Source: an uncultured Gammaproteobacteria bacterium (lineage in GTDB: Bacteria; Patescibacteriota; Patescibacteriia; Magasanikbacterales; GWA2-37-8). From it: DNA of 64,000 nucleotides. Within the stretch, counting starts at the first letter, position 1, and each line of letters opens with the position of its first letter. Both the position numbers and the translations under genes were made by a program. The stretch is taken from NCBI GenBank assembly GCA_964355175.1, contig CAYHBZ010000001.1:240523-304522 (forward strand), given 5' to 3'. Under the pieces are notes generated by a model. That model was not told where the DNA came from. It did not search any database and saw nothing but the letters and a program-made list of their open reading frames with translations. This document shows, one piece after another, positions 715-38,646 of the stretch.

Positions 715-829
715 CTTTACGTTTTTAAAAAATACTTTAAACATAAAAATATTTTTCTTTTAATATAAACTTTATTTTTTCATATTTATTCATACAACCT
801 AATAATTAAAGCACTGGATAAAAATCATA

Positions 830-1807: not shown

Positions 1808-1819
1808 AGACTTGGGGTG

Positions 1820-3902: not shown

Positions 3903-3913
3903 ATTCTTAAAAA

Positions 3914-6091: not shown

Positions 6092-6106
6092 ACTTAAATA
6101 GCCTTT

Positions 6107-7210: not shown

Positions 7211-7211
7211 A

Positions 7212-8853: not shown

Positions 8854-8938
8854 AATATATGATTAAATAGTGATATAATTATACTGTCAGACCACTAATA
8901 TGTCAATAAATCCGGCTAATTACAGCGGAATTTTAAAT

Positions 8939-10654
8939 TTATTTTAGGATAATTTTATAAACTTTATACCCAGCATTACTGTATAAAACAGGAAAATTTA
9001 AATTCTTACCATCTTGGTTATTTACCAAAAATACATTGCTGGAGCTGTTTGATCTCTTCATCTCCTGCGCTATTTTAATAAAATCGAGCTCTGAAAGCTT
9101 ATCAAAACCCACACGCAAGTCTTCCCCTGGAACATAACCAAGATTTTTCATCCTTTCCAACCAATCAAAACCAAATTGAGGATTAAAATTCATTAGGGTG
9201 CCGTCTTTCCAATCAGCATAAATAGATCTTTGAGACTCCACTCTAAAACCATCCGAATTGGATGGAACAATAAACACATCTTTAATATCTGTATGGTCTT
9301 TGGCCCAATATTGGACATCCAACCAATCTTTGGATTGAGCATTTTTTATAACAAAATCTTTCTGGACAACTCCGGCTGAAGCACCTAGAAAAATAGCTAA
9401 CCCTACCATCGCATACACAAACTGATTGGCGCTCAAAGCCGGACGCTTAAATACCAACCTAGTGACATTTTCGGCCAATAAATAAAACAAGATAACTGAC
9501 AAAAAGGCTCCCAAAGAAAAAAAAGCGACATTCCAATCACGCGTATCATAAAAAAAAGCGATTATGCAAAAAATTGCCAACAACCTTTCCTGAATGTTGA
9601 ATTCGCCTTCAAATTTTTTTATTAAAAAATTGGAAAAATAAATTATGGCAAAATAGGTGATAAATTGAAAACCTCTCAAAAACTGTAATACCATAGCTAT
9701 GGCAAGCGGAATAAATTCGGTAAAAATCACACCGACCGCTCCCAAGATAACCAAGGCGACAGTAAAAATCATCATTTTTCTATGATTATCCGCTTCCGGT
9801 TTGTACTTACAACTAATAATAAAAACCAAAGATATAAATATCGCTTTTAATAATTGGCCAATGCCCCAAGAAAAAGGAAATATATGATGAGGGGAACGCA
9901 ATTTTAAAAGACTGATCCAAGCCGGGTCGGCATATAGAAAATTCATACTAACGGGAGCAGAAATCACTTTCCAGACAATTAACGGACTGATTATCAATAG
10001 AAATAAACCGACATACGACACCAGCCTACGTATCCTGATATTTCTTAGATCCAATAATAAAGAAAATACCGTAATAGCAAAGGGATAAAGAGCCGTAAGA
10101 GGATGTATTAAAAAACAAATGCCTTGTAAAATATAACTGGTATAGTATTTATTTTTAAGAAAAAAATAAATAGCGAACAGAGCCAACGGCAAAGCGACTG
10201 TGATAGTCAACAGCATATCGTTGACGGCTTCGGTCCCCGCCATTATCTGATTGGTAAAAATTAAAAAAAATAAAGATAGATAACCTACTTCTTTTCTTTT
10301 GAATAATAATTTGGCAATAAGATATATTGAAAAAAAAGAAAAAAATATAGAAATAAGATAGACAGTAAACAAAATAATAGGAGTACTGATCCCAGAAAAT
10401 TTGATTATTGCCGCCAACCCAAACCATAGAAAAGTATAATAGTAAGGAACTTGCGCCAAAAGATAATCGTGCGGATATAAACTCGGATTCAAAAAAAAAT
10501 TCAAGAATGCAACAGTGATGGACTGGTCTCCCCAACCATAGCGATATTGATTAATACCAAGAACCGACACAATCAAAAAAATAAGTATTATCAACAAGGG
10601 CGTTATCTGCTTATGAGCAAAAAACTTTTTTATAGATAGAAAAAAAAATTTCAT
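8939..10654 (-). CDS. Polytopic membrane protein (about 12 TM) with a soluble C-terminal domain. Putative GT-C-type glycosyltransferase.
   Basis: Hydrophobic periodicity in the first ~400 aa and a polar C-terminal ~170 aa. No specific motif recognised. Confidence 0.4.
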   Translation of the reverse strand: MKFFFLSIKKFFAHKQITPLLIILIFLIVSVLGINQYRYGWGDQSITVAFLNFFLNPSLYPHDYLLAQVPYYYTFLWFGLAAIIKFSGISTPIILFTVYLISIFFSFFSIYLIAKLLFKRKEVGYLSLFFLIFTNQIMAGTEAVNDMLLTITVALPLALFAIYFFLKNKYYTSYILQGICFLIHPLTALYPFAITVFSLLLDLRNIRIRRLVSYVGLFLLIISPLIVWKVISAPVSMNFLYADPAWISLLKLRSPHHIFPFSWGIGQLLKAIFISLVFIISCKYKPEADNHRKMMIFTVALVILGAVGVIFTEFIPLAIAMVLQFLRGFQFITYFAIIYFSNFLIKKFEGEFNIQERLLAIFCIIAFFYDTRDWNVAFFSLGAFLSVILFYLLAENVTRLVFKRPALSANQFVYAMVGLAIFLGASAGVVQKDFVIKNAQSKDWLDVQYWAKDHTDIKDVFIVPSNSDGFRVESQRSIYADWKDGTLMNFNPQFGFDWLERMKNLGYVPGEDLRVGFDKLSELDFIKIAQEMKRSNSSSNVFLVNNQDGKNLNFPVLYSNAGYKVYKIILK

Positions 10655-12721: not shown

Positions 12722-13759
12722 TTAAAAAAACATCTTAAAAAATGAAAGTGCGCCCTGTTTCCAAGGTACTCGATGAGATACGCCAGACTGACCTTTAAAT
12801 TTTTCTAAATTAGCCAAATACCAATCATAATTTCGCACCAATGCCTGCTTATTGGAAAATTTTGGTGCATACCCCAAGACTCTTTGGGCTTTTTCTATTG
12901 AAACAAAGCTGTCTTTTGAAGCGGTTTCATATACCCATTTATAAAGAGGAGACAGATGAAAAGCCTCAAGAAACCGCAACATCAGAATCATAGGCCAAGC
13001 AGGAAACCCAACTATTTTTTTATTAAAACCAGCCTTATCCAATACGGCCTGATAGTCTTCTTTCATGGTGGTAAATTCTTTGGCGCCAATATTAAAAGTA
13101 TCGTTGACTTTTTCTTTAGGCAAAGTAGCGCATAAGTAGATAGCGTCACAAAGATCTTCTACATCGAGCAGTTGATAACGGTTGTGACCACTTCCGATCA
13201 TTGGAAAATTTTTGCCGTCTTTGGCCCAATCATAAAATAAAGCAAATACGCCCAAACGTTCCGGTCCAATAAATGATTTAGGCCTGATAATTGGCACACA
13301 CATGCCCTGACGGGCCGATTCTAAACAGGCGATCTCAGCTAAAATTTTAGCCTGCCCATAAGGTCCTACCCCTTCTAGCTTATCATCTTCCGCGAGCGGA
13401 TGATGGTCAGGAATACCATAAACGGCCGTAGAAGAAACATGGATGACCCTGTCCACTTGGTGATTTTTGGCGCTAAGTAAAATATTTTTGGTGCCTTGAA
13501 CATCAGTAGAAAATATATCTTCTTCTTTATAAAGTGGCAAAGCCGCGGCGCAATGAATTACCACATCCACTCCGATCATTGCTTGGTCGACTTGTTCCAT
13601 ATTCCTAGTATCATATACAAGCGCTTCGATTTTATCTTTTTCAGGATAATCAAACGGCATAATATCAAGTGATCTTACCACGTGACCTTTACTCAATAAA
13701 TATCTAACTAAACTTATTCCTAAAAAGCCAGATCCACCTGTAATTAAATAACGAGACAT
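12722..13759 (-). CDS. NAD-dependent epimerase/dehydratase (extended SDR family)
   Basis: MSRYLITGGSGFLGISLVRYLL Rossmann motif ... YGQAK (YxxxK). Confidence 0.8.
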   Translation of the reverse strand: MSRYLITGGSGFLGISLVRYLLSKGHVVRSLDIMPFDYPEKDKIEALVYDTRNMEQVDQAMIGVDVVIHCAAALPLYKEEDIFSTDVQGTKNILLSAKNHQVDRVIHVSSTAVYGIPDHHPLAEDDKLEGVGPYGQAKILAEIACLESARQGMCVPIIRPKSFIGPERLGVFALFYDWAKDGKNFPMIGSGHNRYQLLDVEDLCDAIYLCATLPKEKVNDTFNIGAKEFTTMKEDYQAVLDKAGFNKKIVGFPAWPMILMLRFLEAFHLSPLYKWVYETASKDSFVSIEKAQRVLGYAPKFSNKQALVRNYDWYLANLEKFKGQSGVSHRVPWKQGALSFFKMFF

Positions 13760-13762
13760 AGA

Positions 13763-15064
13763 TTAAAAATAAAAAATACAAAACATAAATATTAACCAAG
13801 ATAACACACTTAAAAAAATAGTCTTGTCTTTATAAAATAATTTTTCAGGAAATTCTGCACCATGAGAAGTATGCACAATATTGAGATAGCGAAAGATGCC
13901 AATAATTACAAAAACGATGGAATAAACCGTAAGATCGGAAGTAACTCCCAAGATCGTATAGATCCCATATATCACTAAAGTCAACGAAGCGGCGATGGAT
14001 AATAGGTGGTCAAGAAGACTAAGGTTGTAACTTTTTAAAACCGTTCGAATATTAGAACCAGCTAACTCACTTCTTCTTTTACCCACCGTAATAAATAGCG
14101 CCACAAAAATTACCATTAGTATTAGCCAACGAGAAATAAAAGTGTCAGTGGCCAAACCACCAGCAACTACGCGCAAAAGATAACAGAGCGATACGCAAAT
14201 AAGATCAAAAATCGCTACATTTTTAATATAAAAAGAATAAACTAAATTTATAACCAGGTATAAAAATATAGGCAATATAATAGAAGCAGCAAACATATAT
14301 ACTACCCAAGCTCCCACCAAAAAAAGCACCGCGGCTATGCCTACCGCCTCTCTTAGAGAAACAGCGCCGCTGGCAATTGGTCGAACACATTTGAGCGGAT
14401 GACGAGCGTCTACTTCTCTATCCGCGATATCATTTACGACATAAACCAAGCTGGCAAAAAAACAGAAGGCTACAAAGGCTGCAAGCGCTTCTTCAAATTT
14501 TGATGAAAAAAATAATTCCTTGGCGAAAAAAATCGGTATAAATACGGCTAAATTCTTTATCCATTGTTGCGGCCTCATCAATAAAAGATAATTTCTAAAT
14601 TTACTAATAAATCCGATCATATATTTAAAAATATCGTCAATCAAATAAGTAATTTTGGTAAATACACTGTCGTTATCTGATTTTATTCTAGACACATAGA
14701 TAAAATCTGCTTCAATATTATAGGCAAACCGTGCATCAGTAAGATATTTATCCCCAATAACCAGGGAATCCAAATTTTGCTCATTTTTTACCAAATCTAA
14801 TATTTTTTTATTTGGTTTTCGGTAAGTGGTATCTAAAAAAATAGCGCCGCTTAGACTTTCAATTTTTAGATTTCTATTATTTTTATTTTTTTTATTTGAA
14901 CATAAATAAACTTTATTTTTGGTAACCAGCTCTTTGATTTTATTAATTAAATGAACTTCGACTTCATCGCGGCCATCGGAAGTAATAGTGCCGTCAATAT
15001 CCAAAAAAATAATTTTATTCTCAATCTTATTCGTATCTATATCCGCAAAAGAAGTTGGCTTCAT
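13763..15064 (-). CDS. Fusion of an N-terminal HAD-like phosphatase domain with a UbiA-family prenyltransferase (decaprenyl-phosphate phosphoribosyltransferase-like)
   Basis: IIFLDIDGTITSDG (HAD motif I DxDGT), then RPQQWIKNLAVF...YVVNDIADREVDARHP (UbiA NDxxDxxxD) and multiple TM helices. Confidence 0.65.
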   Translation of the reverse strand: MKPTSFADIDTNKIENKIIFLDIDGTITSDGRDEVEVHLINKIKELVTKNKVYLCSNKKNKNNRNLKIESLSGAIFLDTTYRKPNKKILDLVKNEQNLDSLVIGDKYLTDARFAYNIEADFIYVSRIKSDNDSVFTKITYLIDDIFKYMIGFISKFRNYLLLMRPQQWIKNLAVFIPIFFAKELFFSSKFEEALAAFVAFCFFASLVYVVNDIADREVDARHPLKCVRPIASGAVSLREAVGIAAVLFLVGAWVVYMFAASIILPIFLYLVINLVYSFYIKNVAIFDLICVSLCYLLRVVAGGLATDTFISRWLILMVIFVALFITVGKRRSELAGSNIRTVLKSYNLSLLDHLLSIAASLTLVIYGIYTILGVTSDLTVYSIVFVIIGIFRYLNIVHTSHGAEFPEKLFYKDKTIFLSVLSWLIFMFCIFYF

Positions 15065-15068: not shown

Positions 15069-15656
15069 TCATTTTTTAGCGACTATAAAAAAACTCAGGT
15101 AACCATCCGGCGAAGCATTCACTTCTTCAATAGTCATTTTTAATTCCGTGCTTAAAAAGGAAGTAATCACAGTTGGATCTGGCGCCCATAAATGTTGCTT
15201 ATTTATTCCCACGGCCCACATGGCGCAAACCGGATGCGGCAAGTAAAGACAAATATTTCCACCTATTTTAGTTACCCGATGCCATTCTCTAAGCGCCTCT
15301 TTCCAATCAGCCAGATGCTCCAAATTATGGGAAGAAAATACAAAATCCAAAGAGCTGTCTGCTTCTTTAATTTTATATGCGTTTTCATCTACATTATCCT
15401 CAATGGCTTTGGCGTTGTTAAAAGGCCATCTACCCGCCCCAACATCGACTCCCCTGCCTTGGCAATATTTCAAAGCTGACCACTTTACCGCTTCGGCCAT
15501 ATTACCTTTTTTTAAGTAATCAGGGTAAAACTTGCTGGCCTTGTAATAATCCAAACCACTAATTCTAGATCGAACATCTCCAAAGAAAAAGTAGTAAATA
15601 TCGTAAAAAAATGAAAGGATATAACTAATTAGATATTTAAAATATTTCATAGCCAC
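15069..15656 (-). CDS. Class I SAM-dependent methyltransferase (Methyltransf_11-like)
   Basis: GRGVDVGAGRWPF ... SSHNLEHLADW ... LKIGGNICLY. Confidence 0.55.
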   Translation of the reverse strand: MAMKYFKYLISYILSFFYDIYYFFFGDVRSRISGLDYYKASKFYPDYLKKGNMAEAVKWSALKYCQGRGVDVGAGRWPFNNAKAIEDNVDENAYKIKEADSSLDFVFSSHNLEHLADWKEALREWHRVTKIGGNICLYLPHPVCAMWAVGINKQHLWAPDPTVITSFLSTELKMTIEEVNASPDGYLSFFIVAKK

Positions 15657-16765
15657 TATTTAAGTAATAAATCTTGAATTGCCTTAACGACTTGCTCCAC
15701 AGTGATCCGGGAAATATATTTTTTCACCTCGCTTACCCTTACCGGACCCAAGCCGTTATAAAGGCACACAGGTGGAGGTGGATTCAGATAAACTGCTGAG
15801 AGTTTATTGGCTGAATTAGACAAAAATGGTAAACGTAATTTGGGATCTACCGTTATAAATATAGAAACTGATCTTGGAGCCAAAATATAAGCCAAATGAC
15901 TTGGGCCAGAATCCAAACCTAAATAAAATTTTGATCGCGCCAAGATATAAGCGGTTTGAGGCAAAGTGGTAATTCCAGATAGATTGACTACCCGATCACC
16001 AAATCTCTTTAGTAAGCTCATATAGGTATCGGCCAGATCTGTGTTTTCCTTACTACTATCACCAATAATTATCAATTTATCGACTAAATTTTTATCAAGC
16101 ACCAGACTAATTACTTCCACGAATTTTTCCACCGGCCATTGTCTGTCTGGCCATTTGGACAAAGCCCCCAAGACAAAATATTTATATCCACCCAATAGAT
16201 TATCAAATAAGTCCGGCTTGTCTTGTTTAATTTCTGGATAAATTAAATTATTTTCTTTAATAATTTTAGGATCTAATTCTCGTTTAGCAGCCTCTCCTAA
16301 CAGACCAACCAATTTGAGTGTTCTATGTAAATAATGTTCGCCGCGCAGATCGTATCCACATTTTTTTTGAAAAAAATTTGATTGGCTAATTGGCTTGACA
16401 AAATAACCAAACCAGTATCTCGATTTCAAAATATATTTAAGATGTTTTAAATTTAAAGTGGGAGAAATTACCAAGTCAAAATTTTCATCTTTCAACTTTT
16501 TATAATTTATAAATTCTATCCCTTCAAAATTCACTATTGGTGGCACCGTAGTTATTAGACTAATTTTTGCTTGTGGAAAAATATTTTTAATATATTGAAT
16601 GGCTGGAGATAACATAATCAGATCACCAATGCCAAGAGGTGGCAAAAAGAGGACACCAATATTACTAATTTCCCCCAATGTTTTTTTCTTAAATGAACAT
16701 AATTCCAAAAATATGAATAAAATATTCATCGCTAAAATTTTTATATACAATTTAATTTTATTCAT
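15656..16765 (-). CDS. Glycosyltransferase family 9 (heptosyltransferase). Start assigned to internal MNKIKLYI to avoid overlapping the upstream gene.
   Basis: VLFLPPLGIGDLIMLSPAIQYIKNIFPQAKISLITT (GT9 N-terminus) and C-terminal LSGITTLPQTAYILARSKFYLGLDSGPSHLA. Confidence 0.65.
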   Translation of the reverse strand: MNKIKLYIKILAMNILFIFLELCSFKKKTLGEISNIGVLFLPPLGIGDLIMLSPAIQYIKNIFPQAKISLITTVPPIVNFEGIEFINYKKLKDENFDLVISPTLNLKHLKYILKSRYWFGYFVKPISQSNFFQKKCGYDLRGEHYLHRTLKLVGLLGEAAKRELDPKIIKENNLIYPEIKQDKPDLFDNLLGGYKYFVLGALSKWPDRQWPVEKFVEVISLVLDKNLVDKLIIIGDSSKENTDLADTYMSLLKRFGDRVVNLSGITTLPQTAYILARSKFYLGLDSGPSHLAYILAPRSVSIFITVDPKLRLPFLSNSANKLSAVYLNPPPPVCLYNGLGPVRVSEVKKYISRITVEQVVKAIQDLLLK

Positions 16766-16772
16766 AACTAAA

Positions 16773-17822
16773 CTACGCATTTGAAATATATTTAGCAACA
16801 TCCAATAAATCATTTGCCATAAAATCTGCTTTTATTTCAAACTCTTTATCAGCACAAGCGTGGCCAGTTTTTACTCCAATGGTTTTACATCCCGCGGATT
16901 GACCAGCAAGAATATCCGAGGTTTTGTCGCCAACAATAAAACACTTACTAAAATCCAAATCCAACTCTTCTTTTCCTCTTTCCAATAAACCTGTTTTTGG
17001 CTTACGACAATTACAATTATCTCTTTTTGAATGTGGACAAAAATATATTTTATCAATTATGATTCCATTTTGATCACACTCTTTTAACATTACTCTATTA
17101 ACTTTATAAAAATCTTCTTTGGTGAAGTAACCTAGACCTATACCTGCTTGCGTTGTAATGACTATGATTTTATATCCTAAATCTTGCATTTTTTTCATTC
17201 CGGCTAAAGCATTTTTTTCAAAAACAAATTTTTCAGGTTCATGCAAATATTCGATTTCTTTGTTTATCACACCATCTCTATCCAAAAAAACGGCCTTTTG
17301 TTGAACGCGCTTATCTTCTTTAACACTAGTGTCGGTTACGCCAGTATATAATTTTAGAATTTTTTCGATCAACTTTGATGTAGAAATTCCATCTACAGCT
17401 GGCAATACAATTACTTCACCACCTTTATCTTTTATAATACCTGCGCTAGTCAATTGTTCTGGTGTATAATCTCCGGCTTTAAAGTAATAATCAGGCTGTA
17501 ATAGCTCCAAATTTTTTGCATTCCTTCTTTCTTCAAACAAAAAAACATAATCAATACTACTTAAAGCAGCCATAACTCTTAACCTGTCTTCTTCCCCCAC
17601 CAAAGGTCTTTTCTCTCCCTTATAAATTTTTACTGAGCTATCAGAGTTGATACCGGCCACTAAAACATCACACTGATTTTTTGCCTGCTCAAGAAAAGAA
17701 ACATGGCCGGCATGTAAAATATCAAAAACACCGCTGGTAAAACCTATTTTTTTACCGCCCTTTCTTTGTTCATCTAAAATTTTTACCAAATCTTCTCTAC
17801 TAACAATTTTACTTGCAATCAT
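16773..17822 (-). CDS. Bifunctional D-beta-D-heptose-1-phosphate adenylyltransferase (HldE domain II-like) fused to D,D-heptose-1,7-bisphosphate phosphatase (GmhB-like, HAD)
   Basis: FTSGVFDILHAGHVSFLEQAK (cytidylyltransferase HxGH). Then AVFLDRDGVIN ... CNCRKPKTGLL ... IVGDKTSDILAG (GmhB motifs). Confidence 0.75.
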   Translation of the reverse strand: MIASKIVSREDLVKILDEQRKGGKKIGFTSGVFDILHAGHVSFLEQAKNQCDVLVAGINSDSSVKIYKGEKRPLVGEEDRLRVMAALSSIDYVFLFEERRNAKNLELLQPDYYFKAGDYTPEQLTSAGIIKDKGGEVIVLPAVDGISTSKLIEKILKLYTGVTDTSVKEDKRVQQKAVFLDRDGVINKEIEYLHEPEKFVFEKNALAGMKKMQDLGYKIIVITTQAGIGLGYFTKEDFYKVNRVMLKECDQNGIIIDKIYFCPHSKRDNCNCRKPKTGLLERGKEELDLDFSKCFIVGDKTSDILAGQSAGCKTIGVKTGHACADKEFEIKADFMANDLLDVAKYISNA

Positions 17823-17837
17823 ATAAATACTGACTTT

Positions 17838-19142
17838 TTAATTTTCCATCTTTCTACTATCCTCCACACGATATGAATCAGATTCTTCATGATGGGTACT
17901 TATCTCCAAAATCTCAGAATCTTCCAAACCACCAAATCGATGTTTGACTCCCGGTAAAATTCTAATAAAATTACCGGCGGTCATTGTTAGTATTTCGGAG
18001 CCAGCTTCCACTCTTACTTTACCTTTTAATATTAAAAATGTCTCATCTTTATTTTTATGATAATGCAAACTACATTGATAACCCTTGTTTAAAACCAATA
18101 TTTTACTACAATATTTATCATTATTTTCTATCCATTTTTCATATCCCCATACTTTGGAATAAATATTGAGATCATCAATATGCATACCATCTCCACCAAG
18201 TAAAGTTCTAATTTCATCAATGGTCACAGTGGCGGTACCAATTTTTTGCACCACCAATTGCGCGCCGTAGTTAGCCAATTGGGCCGCTTCTACGAAGTTG
18301 GCTCCAGATAAAATTGCCAAAAAAGCCACCGCCACTACCGTATCACCTGCCCCAGAAACATCGCAAACCTTAACTTTATGGACCAACAGATGGTTTATAT
18401 TTTCCTGCTTATCTATCGCTAAAATACCATTACTACCCATAGTCAAAAGAATATTGGAATAGTTCATTTTTGATAATTTCAATCCAGCTTCCTGTGCCTC
18501 CTTGGCACCGGTTATTTCAAGAGCTTCTTTAAGATTGGGAGTGAGATAATCCACGCCCACAAAATTAGCACTATTTTGTGGTTTAATATCAGCGATAATA
18601 ATTTTATCTTTCTCTTTGATAGCTTTAATTATTTTAGAAGTAAAATCGGCGGAAAAAAGTCCTTTGGCATAATCCGACAATACTACACCATCACACCAAT
18701 CTATCTTTTCTAAAATTTTATTGAACAAAACAGACTCTTGTTCGGAATTAAAACCATCAACCACTTCTTCATCAGCCCGCAAAATCTGCTGATTGCCGGC
18801 TATATATCGGTGCTTAATGGTAGTAGTACGATTTTCAAGCATAATCACACAATCGTGATTTATTCCAAATTTTTCCAACATCCCTAATATTCTCTCCCCA
18901 CCCTCATCATCCCCCATAAAACCAGCCAGGCTTACTTGAGCTCCCAACGACAATAAATTATTTGAGACATTTGAAGCCCCACCTAAAATAAATTTATCCT
19001 CAGTATTGTTCAGAACTGGGACTGGCGCCTCCGGAGAAATTCTATTAACTTGGCCGTAAGTATACCAGTCCAACATAATATCACCGATGACCAAAACATT
19101 TTTTGTTTTAAATTTATCCACTATTTTAATTAGATTATTCAT
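17838..19142 (-). CDS. PfkB-family heptose-7-phosphate kinase (HldE domain I-like) fused to a C-terminal type-II PMI-like cupin domain
   Basis: VLVIGDIMLDWYTYGQVNRISPEAPVPV ... DVSGAGDT. C-terminal WGYEKWIENNDKYCSKILVLNKGYQCSLHYHKNKDETFLILKGKVRVEAG...ILPGVKHRF (cupin). Confidence 0.7.
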   Translation of the reverse strand: MNNLIKIVDKFKTKNVLVIGDIMLDWYTYGQVNRISPEAPVPVLNNTEDKFILGGASNVSNNLLSLGAQVSLAGFMGDDEGGERILGMLEKFGINHDCVIMLENRTTTIKHRYIAGNQQILRADEEVVDGFNSEQESVLFNKILEKIDWCDGVVLSDYAKGLFSADFTSKIIKAIKEKDKIIIADIKPQNSANFVGVDYLTPNLKEALEITGAKEAQEAGLKLSKMNYSNILLTMGSNGILAIDKQENINHLLVHKVKVCDVSGAGDTVVAVAFLAILSGANFVEAAQLANYGAQLVVQKIGTATVTIDEIRTLLGGDGMHIDDLNIYSKVWGYEKWIENNDKYCSKILVLNKGYQCSLHYHKNKDETFLILKGKVRVEAGSEILTMTAGNFIRILPGVKHRFGGLEDSEILEISTHHEESDSYRVEDSRKMEN

Positions 19143-19149: not shown

Positions 19150-21192
19150 TTATTTTTTCTTTATATTACTTACAGAGCTACTTGGTAAAATAAATTGATC
19201 AATAATTTGCTGACCCTGTTCATCAAAGATGACACCTCGGTCGTTGGCAAGCTTCAAAATATTTTTAGCCTTATCCAACTGATTATTAACTTTATAAAGA
19301 TAGGCCAAGCGCCAGTAACCCTCGCCAATTTTTGGATTATCCTCAATAGATTGTTCCAATAATCTGACCCCTTCTGTCATTTTATTTAATTGCATCTTAA
19401 CAGCGGCCAAACCATATATTATTTGTTGCCTTCTAGGCGATTTTCTCAAAGCATCTTCCAAAACACTTTCTGATTTAAAAACGTATGAACTATTATTATT
19501 TACAATCGCTCCTAGCTGATAAACTTGAGATAAAGTGAGTTGATTTCTGATATCCAGAGGATGCAACAATAAATTTTTCTCCAAATTTTGAATTACTAAA
19601 TCCAACAACTCGTTGGTTTTGTCTTTGCCGATCTTTTGCCAACCACTCGATAAAATTTGAATTATAGTGCGACTCATATCGCTTCTAATATCATCGACGT
19701 GCGGAGAAGAGAAGGCCAAAGCCTCACGAGCGGTCGGTATACCCACCACCGGGTCTTGAGATAAAGCCCGCACCGCGCTCAAAGTTTTATTATTGGCTCG
19801 AGCCGGTTGAATATTAAAAATAAAAATTATAATAAACAAACCCAAACCCATTGTAACCAATGTTCCTGGGCCAATATTTTTATCCGCTCTTATCGGAGCA
19901 TTGGCTGTAAACCCGTTTACCATGGCCGTCACTAAAGCCAACCAAAACATGAAATATAAATATGAAGTGGGATTTTCAAATACCGTAATGTTACTAACAA
20001 AATGAGCAACTAGAAAAGAGCCTCCAATTATCATAAAGTGATAATTTATCATATTTCTTTGCCAGGCTTTTACTAAGGCTAATATAGCCAACACAAACAT
20101 CCCTAAATAAGCCAGCAAGCCAACAAAACCTTGTACTGTTAAAGTATTGACCAAAATATTATGAGCGTTATCAAACCATGTTTCACCATATCCAAAGTTC
20201 AGAGACCTTGGATTATAATGAGCATTGAACGCATAAAAATAATTATTTGGACCCCACCCGAATATTGGCTTTTCCTTCCAACTTTGGATAGAAATTTCCC
20301 AAGCAATCCAACGCGGGCTGGCTTGAATTTCAGCCAAAGAAGTATTTACGGCGCGACCAATAGCCGGTAAATTAGTAACAAAATCACTATTTTTAAAAGT
20401 ATAAAGTAGAGAAACGCCAACCACACCCACAACTACTAGACCCACTAGCCCCCATCTAGCTTTGGGATTATTTTTTAAAACTATAATATAAAAAATACTA
20501 GCAAACACCGCGGCTGCGACCAAACCAAGCAAAGCGCCTCTGGTTCCACTCCAAAATATTCCCATAAAGCTAAAGAATACGCTTATGCCATAAAATATTT
20601 TCCATAAACTATTTTTCTCACGACTAAAGAGCAATATGGACAAAAAGGTCAAAAATAACCCGTATCCACCCACATAAATAGCATTTCCCAACGTACTAGC
20701 CACACGAATTGCCCCATTATTCAAAAGTAGATTTGGGTTCTCTGTCTGTAGCCAAGCGATAAACATGACCATACCCCCACCCAAAAGAAAGACTCTGCCA
20801 GCCCATTTCCAATCTTCCCAATCTTTCAAAACACTCGCCAAGATAATATAGTAAATAAAATAATGAATTAAAGTAAATAGCCCCAACATTCTTTCATGAT
20901 TATCCCAAAAACTATGATACACATCCACGCCAACAAAGGTGGAGACAGCAAAACTCAGAAGAAAAGCCGACAAACCAATAATTATATAATTAAGTTTTGG
21001 TTTGTATTGATCCCAATTGATATATAACAAAATCAAATAAGCAAATAACATTACTTCCACTATTGTTCTAAAAAAAATTATTTTCGGCACAATGAAGGGA
21101 AATATAAAAGAACTCGGAACAACCAATAATGGAAGAAAAAAGGTTGTGTAGATTAATAGCTTTAAAAAATTTTCCAATCTCGTTTTTAACAT
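19150..21192 (-). CDS. Wzy_C (O-antigen ligase/O-oligosaccharyltransferase-like) polytopic membrane protein with a C-terminal TPR domain
   Basis: SVFFSFMGIFWSGTRGALLGLVAAAVFASIFYII (Wzy_C core with SxTRG). C-terminal TPR-like LAYLYKVNNQLDKAKNILKLA. Confidence 0.6.
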   Translation of the reverse strand: MLKTRLENFLKLLIYTTFFLPLLVVPSSFIFPFIVPKIIFFRTIVEVMLFAYLILLYINWDQYKPKLNYIIIGLSAFLLSFAVSTFVGVDVYHSFWDNHERMLGLFTLIHYFIYYIILASVLKDWEDWKWAGRVFLLGGGMVMFIAWLQTENPNLLLNNGAIRVASTLGNAIYVGGYGLFLTFLSILLFSREKNSLWKIFYGISVFFSFMGIFWSGTRGALLGLVAAAVFASIFYIIVLKNNPKARWGLVGLVVVGVVGVSLLYTFKNSDFVTNLPAIGRAVNTSLAEIQASPRWIAWEISIQSWKEKPIFGWGPNNYFYAFNAHYNPRSLNFGYGETWFDNAHNILVNTLTVQGFVGLLAYLGMFVLAILALVKAWQRNMINYHFMIIGGSFLVAHFVSNITVFENPTSYLYFMFWLALVTAMVNGFTANAPIRADKNIGPGTLVTMGLGLFIIIFIFNIQPARANNKTLSAVRALSQDPVVGIPTAREALAFSSPHVDDIRSDMSRTIIQILSSGWQKIGKDKTNELLDLVIQNLEKNLLLHPLDIRNQLTLSQVYQLGAIVNNNSSYVFKSESVLEDALRKSPRRQQIIYGLAAVKMQLNKMTEGVRLLEQSIEDNPKIGEGYWRLAYLYKVNNQLDKAKNILKLANDRGVIFDEQGQQIIDQFILPSSSVSNIKKK

Positions 21193-21195
21193 ATA

Positions 21196-23409
21196 CTATC
21201 TATTAAATTTTAACTTAAAATTATTGGCTTCTTCTCTTCTGTTAGTTTTATTTAAATAATCAATATATTTATCTATCAAGTGTAAATTTTGCTTTTCGTC
21301 TTTATCCATTATAATCTTTACGATACTATCTTCTAGTAAATTAATACTACTATAAAGACTAAATAGATCAAAAACAGCGTCCAGCTCATCAGAGTTAAAT
21401 CGATAACCCAACTCTAAGGCTTTTTTAGCAGAATTAAAAGCGGATAAATTATCATTTTTATGACCGTAAATTATCGATTGCATCCAATAAGATGACGGAT
21501 AACTCGGGAAACGAATAATAAAATCAGCCGTAATTTTTAAAGCCTCGTCGTGCTTCCCTTGAAGCATTTTAACAGTGGCCAAACCAAATGTCAAAGCCGG
21601 TCTAGAGGGGCTGGTAGAAAGATAATATTTATAAATTTTTTCCGCTTCATTCAAGTAAACCGGATCTTTCCAAAATTTATATCCGTCTACATAAACCGTA
21701 CCCAAAAGCTTGCCCCCCCTGGTATCGGTTGGATAATCGGAAATAAATGATTGAATTGCTCCAACACCAAAATTATACATCTCTCTTGCTAAAGGACGGT
21801 GAGAGCTCACCACAAAATCCGGATGGGCGCTAATCCAGCTCAAAATAAACTGACCAAATTCAAAAGCAATATCGGGGCGATAAGGGTTTAAAATTTGTAC
21901 GGCTTTTCTATGAAACTCTACAGCTCCTTTGAAATCAACCATGGACTTTTTAACCGCCTGCGCTGCGTAATAATCAGCTTTAGCCGGCAGGTATACAAAT
22001 CTAAAAAGATACAGGCAGGACAAAAAAATTAAAACGCTTATAAATAAAAACTTTAACAACGGTCCAAAAAAAACTTTCAATGATCCTAAATATTTTTCAT
22101 GATTGTTCGCGCCAATATTATTTTTTGTTTTTAGATCAGTATTGCTCACATTATTGTTATATAGATCAATACCCGCCAATAACCAAAAGAAAACCAGGTA
22201 GGAGGAAAGATCTTCAAATACAAATAGATTTCTTATAAAGTGAGATAGCCAAAAGGCACCTAGGCCCAAAAATAGAAATCTTTCATTTTTATTCTTTTGT
22301 TTATAATTTTTAAAAATTAAATAAAAGGCATAAAAATAAATAAAAAGATACAAGCTAAGCCCGACTATTCCGGTAGTGGCCAATAAATTAAAAAAGACAC
22401 TGTGGGCATTGTCCTGCCAATCTTCAGTACGTCCGAAAAATTCGGGTAAATAGTTTTTGTTAAAAAGATCGTAGTAATTTTCCCAACCCCAACCCAGCAA
22501 AGGCTTTTGCTCCCAACCCACCACCGCGGTTTTCCACATCAACAAACGGCTGCCACCACTAGCCTCACTAAGCGGAGTGGTGACAAAGCGATTCAGGATC
22601 GGAATATTTTTTATGAAAGAAAAATTTCTAAAAGAAATCAATATAATCGGAGCTATTACCAACACAGAAAGTACAGACAAAAAAATCTTCCTTTGTCCTT
22701 GCCAATCCAAATCCTTTGCCAAAAAAATCAACAAAAATATTAGACCACCATAAAGACCAACCAAATCACCTCTGGTTTGAGAAGTAAAAATTGTTATCAA
22801 ACTGACTACCATCTCTATCAGCCACAAATATTTCAACTTGGTTTTGGTATTGTAATAAAAAATCAATGAAGAAAAAAATAAAAAACCGGCAAACCCAGCC
22901 AAAAAAATCGGGTTGCCTAGAGTAGAGCTCATACGAGCAGCCCCGGCATTAAGCAATAATCTGGAATTAAATACCTGCAACATCGCTATCAAAGGCGCAA
23001 CCATACCAATACCCACAAACCACTGCCACAACTTGTACCATTGCTCCTTGGAAAATACCGAACGCCAAACTAAAAATAATATGCCATAATGACACATTAT
23101 TACCAAACCGGTCATACGCTCGGTACGACTCCACAAACTACGATTAAAGTTTTCACTAAATATTGAAGCTATAAAAATAGCAACGTAAAACAATAATACG
23201 GAAAGGCTCAGCCAACTAAATCTTGGTTTCAAAAAACGCCAGTTGGAAAGCAGAGCAATTAGCCAAACAACCAAAATTAACAACGAAAATATCTGTAGTA
23301 AAAAGGCTTTGGGAGCGACAAATGGATATACTGAATTTTGCCAAACAATTATAGGCAATAAAAATAACCCCACGGTCAGATAGTATATTATGTTTTTTTC
23401 TCTTTGCAT
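21196..23409 (-). CDS. Paralog of the preceding gene: Wzy_C-like membrane protein with a C-terminal TPR domain
   Basis: ITIFTSQTRGDLVGLYGGLIFLLIF Wzy_C core. TPR-like C-terminus. Same length class as the neighbour. Confidence 0.6.
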   Translation of the reverse strand: MQREKNIIYYLTVGLFLLPIIVWQNSVYPFVAPKAFLLQIFSLLILVVWLIALLSNWRFLKPRFSWLSLSVLLFYVAIFIASIFSENFNRSLWSRTERMTGLVIMCHYGILFLVWRSVFSKEQWYKLWQWFVGIGMVAPLIAMLQVFNSRLLLNAGAARMSSTLGNPIFLAGFAGFLFFSSLIFYYNTKTKLKYLWLIEMVVSLITIFTSQTRGDLVGLYGGLIFLLIFLAKDLDWQGQRKIFLSVLSVLVIAPIILISFRNFSFIKNIPILNRFVTTPLSEASGGSRLLMWKTAVVGWEQKPLLGWGWENYYDLFNKNYLPEFFGRTEDWQDNAHSVFFNLLATTGIVGLSLYLFIYFYAFYLIFKNYKQKNKNERFLFLGLGAFWLSHFIRNLFVFEDLSSYLVFFWLLAGIDLYNNNVSNTDLKTKNNIGANNHEKYLGSLKVFFGPLLKFLFISVLIFLSCLYLFRFVYLPAKADYYAAQAVKKSMVDFKGAVEFHRKAVQILNPYRPDIAFEFGQFILSWISAHPDFVVSSHRPLAREMYNFGVGAIQSFISDYPTDTRGGKLLGTVYVDGYKFWKDPVYLNEAEKIYKYYLSTSPSRPALTFGLATVKMLQGKHDEALKITADFIIRFPSYPSSYWMQSIIYGHKNDNLSAFNSAKKALELGYRFNSDELDAVFDLFSLYSSINLLEDSIVKIIMDKDEKQNLHLIDKYIDYLNKTNRREEANNFKLKFNR

Positions 23410-23480
23410 AGCCTAAAATCCCTCTATAAATAGAATGATCTAAACCTAAATTACAATATAATTATACCTAAACTTACATA

Positions 23481-23513
23481 AAAAAACAACCCCTCCGTTT
23501 TGCAACGGAGGGG
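23481..23513 (-). terminator. Rho-independent terminator of the surface-protein gene
   Basis: 10-bp GC stem CCCCTCCGTT/AACGGAGGGG with a TTGC loop, followed on the minus strand by TTGTTTTTTT. Confidence 0.6.
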
Positions 23514-23551
23514 CATGTCTCTTTCAGAACTAGATCTGTTAAGCTAACAGA

Positions 23552-26500
23552 TTAGTACTGGTAAGTCTTGCCATAAACTGGAATTCCAGTAACTGGCGCA
23601 ACGTTCGTGTAAGCAGACGAACCGTCACCCCAACTAAAGGTAACCAATTGTGTGGTCAATTTCTCAACGCTAGCGGCAGTGTCGCTAAAGTCAGCATCAG
23701 TAGTATCAGCTACGAGATAAACCTGTTTAGCACCGGACCATTCATTTTGGGCGGTTAAAACAATGCTTACCTGATCACTGGTACTAGTAGCCATACTGGT
23801 AAGATACACGCTACCCATGAGATGGGCGCTATCAAATGTACTACCACTATAGGCATAGATAGTGACCGATCCGTTGCCGTTTCCGTCGCCAGCAATCAAG
23901 TTGCCGGTCAATTTCACAGCCAAGGTACCAAGAGTGGAGTTCTGGTTGCTTCCAGCTTCAGGAGAGGAAGTGAAGGTAAATACACCTACAGTATCCTGAG
24001 CCTTGGTGGAGTGTACAACAGAAGCTGTATCACCTTCAGCAACAGCAACGTTAGTCTTGCGAATAGTCTTAGCAGTTACACTGCTATCAACTAAAGCAAC
24101 GGAGTCAACTATACCGTACTGCTTGGAGTTGGAACCTTCACCCAACAAAATGAAATCGTTGGTCAAGTTAGCAGTAGTGCTAAATTGAGCAGATACTTTC
24201 TTGAAACCAATTTTTACAGCGTCGCCAGACACAGCACCATCATTGATAGTGTTGAATAAAGCGCTAACAGTAATTAGATTGCTCTGATCTTTGATCAAGT
24301 AAGCATCCAATTGACCATCGCTGAAAGTACATTCACCAGAGCTGTTCAAGAAACATTCCTTGTTAACAGTTTCGCCAGCTTTGTTCTTATAGGTTACAAT
24401 TGCTTTCTTAACATCTACATACTGGGCAGCAGTACCGAGAGCCAAAGCAGCACCGGTCAATGTGAAGCTTTCTTTGGTAGGAGTCAATTTATAAGTGGTC
24501 ATAGCTACTGGAGTAGCGGAACCAGAAATAACGACATCAGCCAAAGGAGTGGAACCATCCACAGCTACAGTCACAGAACCGCCAGTAGTTACAGTCAAGT
24601 AGATTGGAGAAGAGTCATTAATAACTGAAGTAGAATTCTCAGTTACACTCTTACCGTCGGCAAATGTCTCAACATCGATATCATCATCTGGATCAACATC
24701 TACATTAACATAACGAGTGGCAGTAAGACTGTCTTTGATTACCAACTGAGCTACCAATTTCTTGCTGTCACCAGCTTTCAATTTGTAATTCAAGCTAGAG
24801 AAAGTTACATAATAGTAACCACCACTACCAATCGTACCAGAAAGGTCAGAAAGGTTCTTAGTCATCAAAGGAGTAGTCGCGCCATCTTCCCACAAAGATA
24901 CAGTGTTTACTACAGCATTAGCAGCAGTATCACCAAGATCATTGCTAATAGCGGTGGTGGAAGCAAATACGCGCAATTTCAAACTAGTAATTTTGAGATC
25001 ATCGGAAGTGCCAGCAGTCAACAATAGACCTAAGGCATTCTGAGTAGATCCTTTTACTACAGAAGCTGAAGCTGGAGGAGTTGCGCGGGTTACGGTCAAC
25101 TGAGCTCCAGTAACAGTCATGCTGTTACCAGTCAAAGTGTTTGGAACGATCACAGAAGCGCTCACATATTGTGAGTTATCTACGTATTTTACGTAGTTAG
25201 AACCGCTGTAATCAACTTTGGAGACAACTTTCATGCTGGAAGGCATGCTGGTATCAATATCGGCAACCACGGCAAAGTGACGGGTCTTACCGGCAGCGAT
25301 GTCGTAAGAATCGGTAAACACCTTGTAATAGCTGTTAGCGGAAACTGTAGTACCAGTACCAAAGTCAGATTGAGGTCCAACCATAGTCTGATTGCTGTTG
25401 TCCAAATCTACGATTTTTACATTCTTTACAAATGCATAGTTAGTAGAAGTGCTCAAAGCGTTAGAAACAGAATCTGTCAAAAAGATAGATACTTTAGTGC
25501 TTTTTACAGTTACATTGTTGGAAGAGCTGAAAGAGAACTTCTGCAATATAACGTTGGTTACATTCTTACCAATATTAGTGGCGGCAGGACCATTGTTAGA
25601 CAAGGTCAAATCACCACCAGTAACAGTATAAGTCTGGTTACCAGTAGCAAAACTGTTGGTCAAGTTAACACCGGCATTATATTGAGTGTCTAGGATTCTT
25701 ACATCGCTAGTTTCGTCAACATAAAATGCCACGGTATCAGCTACGCGACCACCAGTGTTGTCAGCGTATACTACGAAAGTCTTAGTATCACCTTTAGTAA
25801 TAGTGTATGGAGTAGCCAAGGTGAAAACAACATGATCGCCAGTCATAGTTGCAGCCGAAGCTACATCAGAGCTGCCGAGAGTCAATTTCAAGTTAGCCAA
25901 GTAATCATTGGATAAAGTACCACCGTTGGTCAAAGTCATATTAACAACTTTAACATCGTTGGTAGCAGAGCTAGCACTAATAGTACCACGAGCCACTTCT
26001 ACTTTAGAAGCACCCAAGCCAAAAGAACCGGTAGAACCAGAGTTATCTACTGTAATAGCAGATACTGAGGAAGCACCAATGCTCATAATAGAACCAACTA
26101 CGCCAGATACAGTAGCATTGTTAGCACTGACAACTTCAAAACCATCGGCATCACCAGAAACAGCAAGAGTAGTATCTAAATCAGCTACTACGCGCAAAGT
26201 TTTTGGAGTGCTGGACAAAGCCACTTTCAAATTACTAAAAGTAACTACGTTAGTATCAGAAGCTACAGTGCGACCACTGGTCAAACGGTTGTTACCATCG
26301 TAAATATATACGCTGGCCAAGTCGTTATAAGCACCCAAACCGATACGGTGTAATTTCAAGTCATTCAATGTGCCGGAACCGGAAACATTGAAGTGCATGA
26401 AGTCAACGCCAGTAGCGTCTTGTGGTAATGGTGTGGCAGCTGGAGAATCAGAAGCCAAGGAAACAGTAACTGGACCAGAAGAAACTGGAGGAACTACAAC

Positions 26501-27268
26501 AGTTCCAGGAACAGCTTTAAATCCAAAAGTTACATCAACCAAAGCAGCTTCCATAGCAGTAACTTGAGTACCAGTGGAGTAACCAGTGGTAGAAGCCATA
26601 GCTACAGCAAATTTAGCTTGGAATTTGTTGGCAGTGAAACCAGTAGCAGTAACTTCGCGTAGGCTCTTGTTTGTAGCCACTACGTAAAATTTACCACCAT
26701 TGGAAACCAAAGCGCCTTCAGAAGGAGCAGCTTCAGTTACTTTCACAGTGCTCATGTTTTTAGCATGAAGTACCATGTCAGCGCTGGAAGCAGGAATTGT
26801 GCGGCCACCTTTTGCAGGTAAAGCAGCATAATTTGCACCATATAGACCAGTAGCGGCAGCAACAGACATTTCTGCCAATTTGCCGTCAGCCATAGTCACA
26901 TACAATTTTTCGGTTGAGCTATCTTTCAAAAGATAGGCGCCTGGGCGAGGAGCAACTACCCCAGCGGCTGGGAAAGAAGCCAAGCAGTCACCAGTAACAT
27001 ACTTGAAAGTATATTTGCTGTCGGCTGTCCAGGATTTAAAAATATCACCTTGTGGGAAATAAGATCTTGATTTGTCGGAGTTTACTACCCAGATATCGGC
27101 ACCGTTAGCTTTGACGAAATCGCCGGCAACAACGGTAGCGCAGTCAACCTGTGTAGCAGCTGTAGCAACAGCTGGTACCAAAGCAGCAACGCCCAAAGAC
27201 CAGAAAATGGTTGTAGAAGCAACACCTACAGTGAAGATCTTCTTACCCAATTTTAATAAATTGTTCAT
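23552..27268 (-). CDS. Secreted, Thr/Ser/Val/Ala/Gly-rich cell-surface protein (S-layer-like; 1239 aa from MNNLLKLGKK)
   Basis: N-terminal signal peptide KIFTVGVASTTIFWSLGVAALVPAVATAA. Low-complexity beta-rich composition. Elevated GC and codon bias relative to neighbours. Strong terminator. Sits beside the glycosylation genes. Confidence 0.55.
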   Translation of the reverse strand: MNNLLKLGKKIFTVGVASTTIFWSLGVAALVPAVATAATQVDCATVVAGDFVKANGADIWVVNSDKSRSYFPQGDIFKSWTADSKYTFKYVTGDCLASFPAAGVVAPRPGAYLLKDSSTEKLYVTMADGKLAEMSVAAATGLYGANYAALPAKGGRTIPASSADMVLHAKNMSTVKVTEAAPSEGALVSNGGKFYVVATNKSLREVTATGFTANKFQAKFAVAMASTTGYSTGTQVTAMEAALVDVTFGFKAVPGTVVVPPVSSGPVTVSLASDSPAATPLPQDATGVDFMHFNVSGSGTLNDLKLHRIGLGAYNDLASVYIYDGNNRLTSGRTVASDTNVVTFSNLKVALSSTPKTLRVVADLDTTLAVSGDADGFEVVSANNATVSGVVGSIMSIGASSVSAITVDNSGSTGSFGLGASKVEVARGTISASSATNDVKVVNMTLTNGGTLSNDYLANLKLTLGSSDVASAATMTGDHVVFTLATPYTITKGDTKTFVVYADNTGGRVADTVAFYVDETSDVRILDTQYNAGVNLTNSFATGNQTYTVTGGDLTLSNNGPAATNIGKNVTNVILQKFSFSSSNNVTVKSTKVSIFLTDSVSNALSTSTNYAFVKNVKIVDLDNSNQTMVGPQSDFGTGTTVSANSYYKVFTDSYDIAAGKTRHFAVVADIDTSMPSSMKVVSKVDYSGSNYVKYVDNSQYVSASVIVPNTLTGNSMTVTGAQLTVTRATPPASASVVKGSTQNALGLLLTAGTSDDLKITSLKLRVFASTTAISNDLGDTAANAVVNTVSLWEDGATTPLMTKNLSDLSGTIGSGGYYYVTFSSLNYKLKAGDSKKLVAQLVIKDSLTATRYVNVDVDPDDDIDVETFADGKSVTENSTSVINDSSPIYLTVTTGGSVTVAVDGSTPLADVVISGSATPVAMTTYKLTPTKESFTLTGAALALGTAAQYVDVKKAIVTYKNKAGETVNKECFLNSSGECTFSDGQLDAYLIKDQSNLITVSALFNTINDGAVSGDAVKIGFKKVSAQFSTTANLTNDFILLGEGSNSKQYGIVDSVALVDSSVTAKTIRKTNVAVAEGDTASVVHSTKAQDTVGVFTFTSSPEAGSNQNSTLGTLAVKLTGNLIAGDGNGNGSVTIYAYSGSTFDSAHLMGSVYLTSMATSTSDQVSIVLTAQNEWSGAKQVYLVADTTDADFSDTAASVEKLTTQLVTFSWGDGSSAYTNVAPVTGIPVYGKTYQY

Positions 27269-27338
27269 AATATATTTATAAGACTCCATTGTTTTGCGCG
27301 CGGCATGTAAACACACCGGTCAAACGCAATGGAATTTG

Positions 27339-34388: not shown

Positions 34389-34465
34389 AATCTAAAATGA
34401 TATAGAAGACAGAAGGAAGTTGCTGATATGTAATCGACCCTTAACATAATAACAACCAACACCGT

Positions 34466-35641: not shown

Positions 35642-35722
35642 AAAATAAAATTGGATATATTATATCACAAAAAATGCAAAATAAAAAACAGAGAGGTGTC
35701 TCTGTTTAAAAATTTAAATCGT

Positions 35723-35796
35723 GGGCAGTAAAGGATTCGAACCTTTGACCCCCTCGGTGTAAACGAGGTGCTCTAACCAACTGAGCTAACTGCCCA
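35723..35796 (-). tRNA. tRNA-Val (anticodon TAC). No encoded CCA.
   Basis: Minus-strand transcript GGGCAGUUAGCUCAGUUGGUUAGAGCACCUCGUUUACACCGAGGGGGUCAAAGGUUCGAAUCCUUUACUGCCCA. Cloverleaf folds with anticodon loop UUUACAC. Confidence 0.9.
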
Positions 35797-35846
35797 AAAC
35801 TGTGATTAATATACTAGAAAATTTAATTTTAGTCAATGGCCGGTAA

Positions 35847-37756: not shown

Positions 37757-37872
37757 AAATATTTAAAATAAATTCTTTTATTATTATAACACAAAAAAAC
37801 ATCCGAATCTAATCGAATGTTTTTTGTTTTACCATATCCACTGTCTACTTTTTCAAATAAACATTGGACATG

Positions 37873-38601: not shown

Positions 38602-38646
38602 CGGATGGCTGTCACGGACTCGATCTTCCCAGACTTCCTGCGCTAG

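Follow-up and report, generated by a model that had tools for sequence, protein, structure and literature searches.

The 64-kb stretch of DNA analysed here (the window) carries on its minus strand two adjacent fusion genes that together appear to encode a route to nucleotide-activated heptose, with a cupin domain at the point in the pathway where the isomerase GmhA would be expected. The upstream gene, at 17838-19142 (-), encodes a 434-amino-acid protein that joins an HldA-type D-glycero-beta-D-manno-heptose-7-phosphate kinase to a cupin resembling phosphomannose isomerase (PMI), and the downstream gene, at 16773-17822 (-), encodes a 349-amino-acid protein that joins an HldC-type heptose-1-phosphate nucleotidyltransferase to a GmhB-type heptose-1,7-bisphosphate 7-phosphatase. 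Just 15 nt separate the two genes, which belong to an extended run of closely spaced minus-strand genes. An initial annotation had proposed both fusions, one of a PfkB kinase with a cupin and one of an adenylyltransferase with GmhB, and profile searches of the two open reading frames (ORFs) confirm them, the longer ORF matching heptose-7-phosphate kinase and cupin models and the shorter ORF matching TIGR02199 and then the GmhB model NF006506.

The kinase domain of the 434-amino-acid protein (residues 9-313, 18204-19118 (-), as delimited by the TIGR02198 match) scores 312.9 bits (E = 2e-93) against TIGR02198 (rfaE_dom_I), for which the curated equivalog cut-off is 345; the runner-up, ribokinase, reaches 81.6 bits. 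PF00294 (PfkB) matches across residues 14-305 with 137 bits, the catalytic motif reads DVSGAGDT, and G264-A265-G266-D267 of its GAGD core are invariant in our alignment A2. The cupin domain (residues ~330-430, 17853-18155 (-), from the Pfam match ranges), the proposed sedoheptulose-7-phosphate isomerase, matches Cupin_2 with 36.8 bits and PF01050 (MannoseP_isomer, C-terminal) with 27.0 bits over residues 330-427, against a gathering score of 23.6; the motifs WGYEKW, SLHYH and PGVKHRF, quoted in the initial annotation, are all found in the ORF. The bifunctional-enzyme model TIGR01479 (GMP_PMI) reaches 28 bits on the 434-amino-acid protein against a cut-off of 373, the fusion partner here being a kinase instead, and the WbuC model gives 18 bits against a cut-off of 42.

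In the 349-amino-acid protein, the HldC domain (residues 15-156, 17355-17780 (-), from the TIGR02199 range and alignment with Burkholderia pseudomallei HldC) contains the motifs HxGH (as HAGH) and ISTS and scores 165.4 bits against TIGR02199 (rfaE_dom_II; cut-off 181.5). The GmhB domain (residues 175-347, 16782-17300 (-), from the NF006506 range and alignment with Escherichia coli GmhB) contains the DxD motif FLDRDG and the zinc motif CPH...C.CRKP; it scores 167.7 bits against NF006506 (cut-off 178) and 133.3 against TIGR00213 (cut-off 149.6), and its assignment to the HAD-IIIA phosphatases is clear from TIGR01656 (140 bits, cut-off 84) and TIGR01662 (105.9 bits, cut-off 44.6). The best matches of the whole protein in the PDB are B. 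pseudomallei HldC (5X9Q, 97 bits) and E. coli GmhB (3L8E and 2GMW); the HxGH, DxD and zinc-loop motifs align with those solved structures, and the GmhB motif columns are invariant in alignments A4 and A5. In PMC11461863, which summarises the survey of heptose enzymes by Tang et al. (2024, Science), the arginine of an 'STTR5' motif is reported to confer use of CTP or UTP; the window HldC has alanine at that position. Among relatives, HldC and GmhB are fused in both orders.

The kinase-cupin architecture is a stable one. Six contigs, drawn from several assemblies and reaching 953,736 bp at the longest, encode the identical 434-amino-acid protein, and all of its 120 best homologues (45-79% identity) carry both PfkB and Cupin_2 domains; a fusion created artefactually by a frameshift was ruled out by the identical protein in independent assemblies and by an architecture shared with over 100 homologues. 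Because the named homologues come from Parcubacteria, Paceibacterota, Daviesbacteria and Liptonbacteria, we assign the host to the CPR (candidate phyla radiation), also called Patescibacteria. The window's 954-kb contig also encodes a second kinase-cupin paralogue (locus L003, 4596-6954), which is 53% identical and retains every cupin ligand. Directly downstream of it lies a true HldD, the ADP-glyceromanno-heptose 6-epimerase (409.9 bits against a cut-off of 274.6), which argues that the sugar concerned is a heptose and not a hexose.

The cupin belongs to a large and tightly conserved family. Out of 1.84 billion cluster representatives, a family profile matched 234 at E <= 1e-30, a number that grows to 3,249 when the limit is set at E <= 1e-10. 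Stand-alone homologues of ~120 amino acids, 55-71% identical to the window domain, occur in bacteria and archaea, the named ones in Woesearchaeota and Nanoarchaeia, and a few fragments among the cupin-domain matches represent kinase-cupin proteins, one of them named Parcubacteria. Throughout the family the four putative metal ligands, H360, H362, E367 and H401, do not vary (alignments A1, A2 and A3), so the domain is not a degenerate cupin. Basic residues (K363, K365, R402 and R425) are likewise conserved, several lysines and arginines being invariant or nearly so, as is the C-terminal motif STHHEESDSYR (STHHExSDSYR in the family). An AlphaFold2 model of the domain (pLDDT, the predicted local confidence score, 94.9) is a small cupin barrel. 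By homology the domain is thus no member of the GmhA family (TIGR00441/PF13580), being a cupin beta-barrel and not a SIS fold.

Among sugar enzymes, the nearest characterised relatives of the cupin are isomerases. The top PDB matches of the family profile overall are quercetinases, and the PDB holds no close solved structure; the nearest sugar enzymes are D-lyxose (ketol-)isomerase (2Y0O, E = 6e-10) and the ~110-amino-acid PMIs of Thermococcus (7ZVY and 7ZVM, E ~1e-6), with D-lyxose/D-mannose isomerase (7NZO) also among the matches. These lyxose and phosphomannose enzymes are metal-dependent aldose-ketose isomerases that act on sugars of the manno/lyxo configuration at C2. CapF is missing from the best 60 PDB matches of the profile, and cupins of the RmlC type are insignificant (E = 0.057). 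The type-II-PMI-like character claimed in the initial annotation therefore holds when domain profiles are run, with PF01050 above threshold and the PMI and lyxose isomerases as nearest sugar enzymes; PF01050 is also matched by 20 of 44 multidomain representatives of the cupin family. Identity with the cupin-type phosphoglucose isomerases (PF06560) was considered and rejected, as no PF06560 match was obtained.

The same evidence raises the question of whether the cupin is simply an ordinary phosphomannose (hexose-phosphate) isomerase that happens to be linked to heptose genes, or whether the module makes NDP-beta-mannose (NDP, nucleoside diphosphate) from fructose-6-phosphate. Besides the PF01050 match, this idea draws on the fold search, in which the best match is a small archaeal PMI (superposition 1.7 Å), on a cupin-NTP_transferase fusion that resembles a reversed GMP/PMI enzyme, and on the sugar-1-phosphate nucleotidyltransferase found beside the cupin in 29 archaeal loci. 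The window cupin shares with type II PMI cupins (PF01050; AlgA/ManC) and the Thermococcus enzymes an N-terminal WG.E motif, the HxH...E...H ligands and an acidic/arginine C-terminal motif, but it is only ~16-17% identical to the solved PMIs and stands in a family of its own; its partners are heptose enzymes and not mannose-1-phosphate guanylyltransferase, and its proposed substrate has seven carbons. Moreover, the fused kinase is specifically HldA-like (312.9 bits for TIGR02198 against 81.6 for the next family), HldD, a heptose C6 epimerase with no role in hexose metabolism, occurs in the operons as well as beside the paralogue, GT9 (glycosyltransferase family 9) heptosyltransferases accompany the clusters, and the cupin alternates with the heptose-specific isomerase GmhA. 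We accordingly regard a hexose-phosphate isomerase as very unlikely.

That alternation with GmhA was followed in several samples of loci. No SIS-domain protein or GmhA was found in the whole 64-kb window, either by phmmer with four GmhA seeds or with a hidden Markov model (HMM) built from GmhA and CPR SIS proteins, which extends to the entire window the earlier remark that no SIS-type GmhA is in view; a marginal match of the HMM at 50004-51245 (12 bits) is FtsZ. On the 954-kb contig the SIS searches covered the window and the 16-kb locus of the paralogue. Across 92 loci (L001-L092), the SIS HMM matches in two, L015 and L063, where the SIS gene forms part of a second gene set and is over 5 kb away from the kinase to which the cupin is linked. 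A sample not chosen by the presence of the cupin was obtained from a metagenome scan anchored on the HldC-GmhB protein, which yielded 33 loci with an HldA-type kinase: SIS lies within 5 kb in 12 of them and a family cupin in two (with one further weak match), none has both and 18 have neither. When the samples are pooled, 0/55 cupin-linked loci have SIS at 5 kb or less from the kinase, against 12/30 cupin-less loci (Fisher p = 7e-7, or 4e-5 with L015 and L063 counted as having both); these values should be taken as no more than an indication, since the loci lack phylogenetic independence.

The kinases and HldC-GmhB proteins that accompany SIS and those that accompany the cupin resemble the window proteins to the same degree. 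The kinase of SIS-linked locus L107 is 42.9% identical to the window kinase domain and that of cupin-linked locus L105 42.3%, and the closest metagenomic relatives of the window HldC-GmhB protein (L100-L102, 37-41% identity) adjoin SIS and a cupin-less kinase. Judged by their sequences, the kinases and HldC-GmhB partners of the two groups are orthologous. The cupin thus fills the isomerase slot of heptose clusters, locally excluding SIS and, as described below, being the sole unassigned gene of an archaeal operon.

Local exclusion also bears on the notion that the cupin has no catalytic role and regulates the kinase by binding a sugar or metal, with a conventional GmhA supplying the pathway. 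Small cupins are often ligand-binding modules, and three representatives of the family show weak AraC_binding matches. Against a tuning domain stand the local exclusion of SIS, the frequent occurrence of the cupin as a stand-alone operon gene rather than attached to one partner, and the catalytic-type metal ligands, which like numerous charged residues do not vary between CPR bacteria and DPANN archaea at 55-70% identity; we consider a purely regulatory function barely credible.

CPR bacteria do possess SIS genes of their own, in a different setting. The cluster in L015 (10364-20260), also seen in L093-L099, runs SDR (short-chain dehydrogenase/reductase), GHMP kinase (HddA-like), oxidoreductases, transaldolase, SIS, GmhB and NTP_transferase, and is by its predicted gene content a route of the GDP-heptose (alpha-anomer) type; the loci of this type contain no cupin, PfkB kinase or HldC. 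SIS thus goes with the GHMP/NTP-transferase route and the cupin with the PfkB/HldC route; in L015 the two sets are neighbours and each has a GmhB of its own, an arrangement that supports functional equivalence of SIS and cupin as the 'first genes' of the two. Between the best 120 matches of the L015 SIS (at least 74% identity) and the kinase-cupin contigs, only L015's own contig is in common, a comparison too narrow to inform on gmhA in the window's genome. Where a SIS GmhA coexists, the cupin may serve the beta-anomer route on its own, and the stereochemistry of its product may even differ.

Second gene sets of another kind were seen in two archaeal loci, L063 (16188-19648) and L057 (14309-16443), each with a distant PfkB kinase that is 25% identical to the cupin-linked one; the set in L063 also holds the SIS gene, a cytidylyltransferase and a radical SAM enzyme. 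These may represent another route to heptose or a related sugar.

Linkage of the cupin to heptose genes was surveyed in GTDB with one genome per species, giving 205 cupin relatives of which the best 80 loci were analysed. The cupin is fused to an HldA kinase in 16 of these, shares an operon with the kinase in 37 and adjoins HldC only in two, and GT9 accompanies cupin clusters in 35 related loci. A five-gene operon recurs in DPANN archaea in the order cupin, HldD-like SDR (264 bits against the HldD cut-off of 274.6), HldA, GmhB and HldC, often with GT9 upstream. As its five genes face the five activities of ADP-L-glycero-beta-D-manno-heptose synthesis and only the cupin is unassigned, isomerase is the sole activity left for it. 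The CPR locus L005 is more compact still, with overlapping cupin, GmhB and kinase genes together with HldC and GT9, and with neither SDR nor SIS. Fusions of the cupin to pathway enzymes have arisen independently in at least six architectures (kinase-cupin, cupin-kinase, kinase-HldC-cupin, GT9-cupin-kinase, HldC-cupin and cupin-HldD), and PfkB is the partner in 25 of the 44 multidomain representatives.

The operons and fusions that include an SDR sustain the main competing explanation, in which the cupin would be a CapF/RmlC-like epimerase that acts on a keto-intermediate of NDP-heptose with the HldD-like SDR, a SIS GmhA being encoded elsewhere in the genome. Cupin-SDR adjacency and cupin-SDR fusions keep this idea alive, and CapF of Staphylococcus aureus (an SDR with a zinc-cupin, acting as C3-epimerase/reductase) is likewise a small metal-binding cupin coupled to an SDR in nucleotide-sugar synthesis and a good match in fold. 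However, profile similarity to CapF is not significant, the sequence standing closer to the isomerases of phosphomannose and lyxose than to either CapF or RmlC, and a sugar-phosphate kinase, not an SDR, is by far the commonest partner of the cupin. L005 and the window have cupin, kinase, GmhB and HldC without an adjoining HldD-like SDR, and the mutual exclusion of cupin and SIS beside orthologous kinases is not expected of an accessory tailoring enzyme. An epimerase role is therefore unlikely in our estimation.

The reading that we prefer is that the cupin is a metal-dependent sedoheptulose-7-phosphate isomerase that displaces GmhA, and we put its probability at roughly 0.65. The idea of a non-orthologous replacement of GmhA, already present in the initial annotation, gains support from the intact ligands, from the independent fusions and operons, and from SIS exclusion beside orthologous kinases. 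With two polypeptides, each covering two consecutive steps, the locus would then encode every enzyme needed to turn sedoheptulose-7-phosphate into nucleotide-activated D-glycero-beta-D-manno-heptose, which is most likely ADP-heptose. In the first, the cupin, with a divalent metal bound at His360, His362, Glu367 and His401, would isomerize sedoheptulose-7-phosphate to D-glycero-D-manno-heptose-7-phosphate, by a chemistry modelled on that of the cupin phosphomannose and lyxose isomerases (ketose to manno-configured aldose). The fused kinase, whose HldA identity is evident from its domain match, would then phosphorylate O1 to give the beta-1,7-bisphosphate, and the product of the cupin may be handed to it straight away. 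In the 349-amino-acid protein, the identified GmhB domain would strip the 7-phosphate and the identified HldC domain would add the nucleotide to yield NDP-heptose, which the adjacent GT9 transferase or transferases would presumably put onto an envelope glycan or glycoprotein. The four-step pathway in two polypeptides envisaged from the outset is thus supported computationally, with three of its four domains identified and the isomerase step predicted.

Several observations weigh against this assignment. The fold search is non-discriminating, as CapF, KdgF and PAC13 score nearly as well as the PMI. CPR bacteria possess a highly conserved GmhA-like SIS family, the best 120 matches to the L015 protein being at least 74% identical to it and the family being named sedoheptulose-7-phosphate isomerase by JGI (the Joint Genome Institute); in L015 itself the SIS gene lies 6 kb from the kinase-cupin gene, so the cupin is not always the sole candidate isomerase, and a SIS GmhA could lie elsewhere in the window's genome, of whose 954 kb ~80 kb were covered. 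Heptose genes are absent from the vicinity of 25 of the 80 cupin loci, mostly in Planctomycetota with Ddl-cupin synteny, so the family may have other substrates elsewhere. Epimerase/reductase pairs are brought to mind by the cupin-SDR gene order of archaea and by the fusions cupin-HldD and cupin-RmlD-NUDIX. Finally, the HldA, HldC and GmhB domains each fall just short of their curated NCBIfam cut-offs, which is unsurprising because the organism is deeply divergent.

Compared with the canonical ADP-L-glycero-beta-D-manno-heptose pathway (GmhA, HldE or HldA plus HldC, GmhB and HldD), the kinase, nucleotidyltransferase and phosphatase are homologous, the order of reactions would be the same, GT9 transferases are the consumers in both, and an HldD is encoded elsewhere in the window's genome; what differs is the isomerase slot, which holds a cupin and not the SIS-fold GmhA. 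The fusions differ too: here they join kinase with cupin (steps 1 and 2) and HldC with GmhB (steps 4 and 3), whereas E. coli HldE joins kinase and transferase (steps 2 and 4). To our knowledge, the first enzyme of the pathway is regarded as universally a SIS-fold GmhA. A precedent for a metal-dependent cupin displacing a SIS-type sugar-phosphate isomerase is provided by phosphoglucose isomerase, the cupin type of which (PF06560) is found in Euryarchaeota and also sporadically in CPR (Jaffe et al. 2020, PMC7304191). Multifunctional heptose enzymes beyond Gram-negatives, including isomerase-kinase-transferase fusions, are described in the survey of Tang et al. (2024, Science), as summarised in PMC11461863, which also lists archaea as producers. 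In that summary no cupin is mentioned; the fusions found here include kinase-HldC-cupin and other cupin combinations. The isomerase in the surveyed fusions is presumably of the GmhA type. Our full-text literature searches returned no description of a cupin-type phosphoheptose isomerase, nor anything relevant on heptose in DPANN.

We lean, by a modest degree, towards the broader view that the cupin family constitutes a third, convergent class of sugar-phosphate isomerase, a cupin-type phosphoheptose isomerase, and defines a GmhA-independent NDP-heptose pathway across CPR and DPANN. Comparative genomics gives good support to the cupin/heptose variant itself, which by this evidence is real, widespread and unannotated; the proteins are labelled 'cupin domain-containing' or 'rfaE domain I' in databases. 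ADP-heptose and other NDP-heptoses are building blocks of the envelope and potent agonists of innate immunity, and GmhA is a target for antibiotic adjuvants. If the assignment is correct, it would add another non-orthologous displacement, parallel to that of cupin and SIS phosphoglucose isomerases, give a function to thousands of proteins that are listed as 'cupin domain-containing' or 'RfaE domain I' in the genomes of CPR and DPANN, and set right those metabolic reconstructions in which the heptose module counts as incomplete. Heptose-containing surface glycans would also be indicated in ultrasmall organisms that lack lipopolysaccharide (LPS), and surveys of NDP-heptose (ALPK1-agonist) producers that rely on GmhA homology would have missed CPR and DPANN lineages.

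Around the two fusion genes, the operon is rich in genes for glycan synthesis. Immediately downstream, at 15656-16813 (-), lies a GT9 glycosyltransferase and putative heptosyltransferase (PF01075, 53.1 bits against 22; heptosyltransferase I, III and RfaQ models, 39-44 bits), whose gene, when started at its first ATG, shares 41 nt with the end of the HldC-GmhB gene. The initial annotation had counted two GT9 genes nearby, and this one is solid; the other, given as a fragment at 1-714, is the N-terminal part of a protein at 1-759 (-) that runs off the window and is weakly GT9-like (RfaQ model positions 4-213, 33.3 bits, E = 2e-8). It shares an LGD..TP motif with the GT9 at 15656-16813 (-), has no Pfam match and fails to reach the gathering score of PF01075. 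On the upstream side, after a gap of 7 nt from the kinase-cupin gene, are two tandem membrane proteins (19150-23409 (-)) with Wzy_C domains, like those of O-antigen ligases and polymerases, and TPR repeats (PF04932, 75.6 and 76.7 bits).

Upstream of this pair is a 1,254-amino-acid surface protein without an NCBIfam match (the three genes together span 19150-27316 (-)), and at 830-10654 are glycosyltransferases of family 4 (GT4), methyltransferases, a DegT aminotransferase and an acetyltransferase; with these, the locus amounts to an envelope-glycan region of ~27 kb. At 12722-15064 (-), a HAD-IIIA domain fused to a UbiA protein like decaprenyl-phosphate phosphoribosyltransferase (DPPR synthase; NF008977, 203 bits, cut-off 234) is followed by an HpnA-like SDR, and these genes look like a lipid-linked pentose donor route within the glycan operon. 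A CPR bacterium is not expected to make LPS. The genes for GT4 and GT9, methyltransferase, aminotransferase, Wzy_C/TPR proteins, UbiA and the 1,254-amino-acid surface protein suggest that the acceptor of the heptose would be an envelope glycan or glycoprotein made by the surrounding operon.

Further members of the cupin family were noted in other surroundings. In the Planctomycetota loci L042, L052, L076, L078 and L089, the cupin is 54-60% identical to the query and stands in a recurrent gene order without nearby heptose genes; in L042 it is flanked by a D-Ala-D-Ala ligase (Ddl) and a CarboxypepD_reg-domain protein, L089 shares the Ddl flank, and the other loci match by ORF sizes only. A stand-alone cupin in the DPANN loci L010/L026, L055 and L082 adjoins gyrB, a nucleoside deoxyribosyltransferase or a HIT protein, not heptose genes. 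Unusual fusions were found among the proteins P0461, P0419, P0403, P0369 and P0373, with the architectures cupin-RmlD_sub_bind-NUDIX, cupin-NTP_transferase, GT9-cupin-kinase, kinase-HldC-cupin and HldC-cupin.

The remainder of the window confirms that the DNA is cellular chromosome, as housekeeping genes are found at 33234-52644, among them those for S-adenosylmethionine synthetase, tRNA-Val, ThiD2/ThiE, serine hydroxymethyltransferase, pyruvate kinase, NrdR, FtsZ and FtsA. The GC content is ~32-36% in the glycan locus and rises to ~41% in this housekeeping region. Beyond it, an ORF of 2,703 amino acids occupies 55846-63957 (-) and is preceded by small ORFs, including one for a TSP3-repeat protein at 54587-55372.

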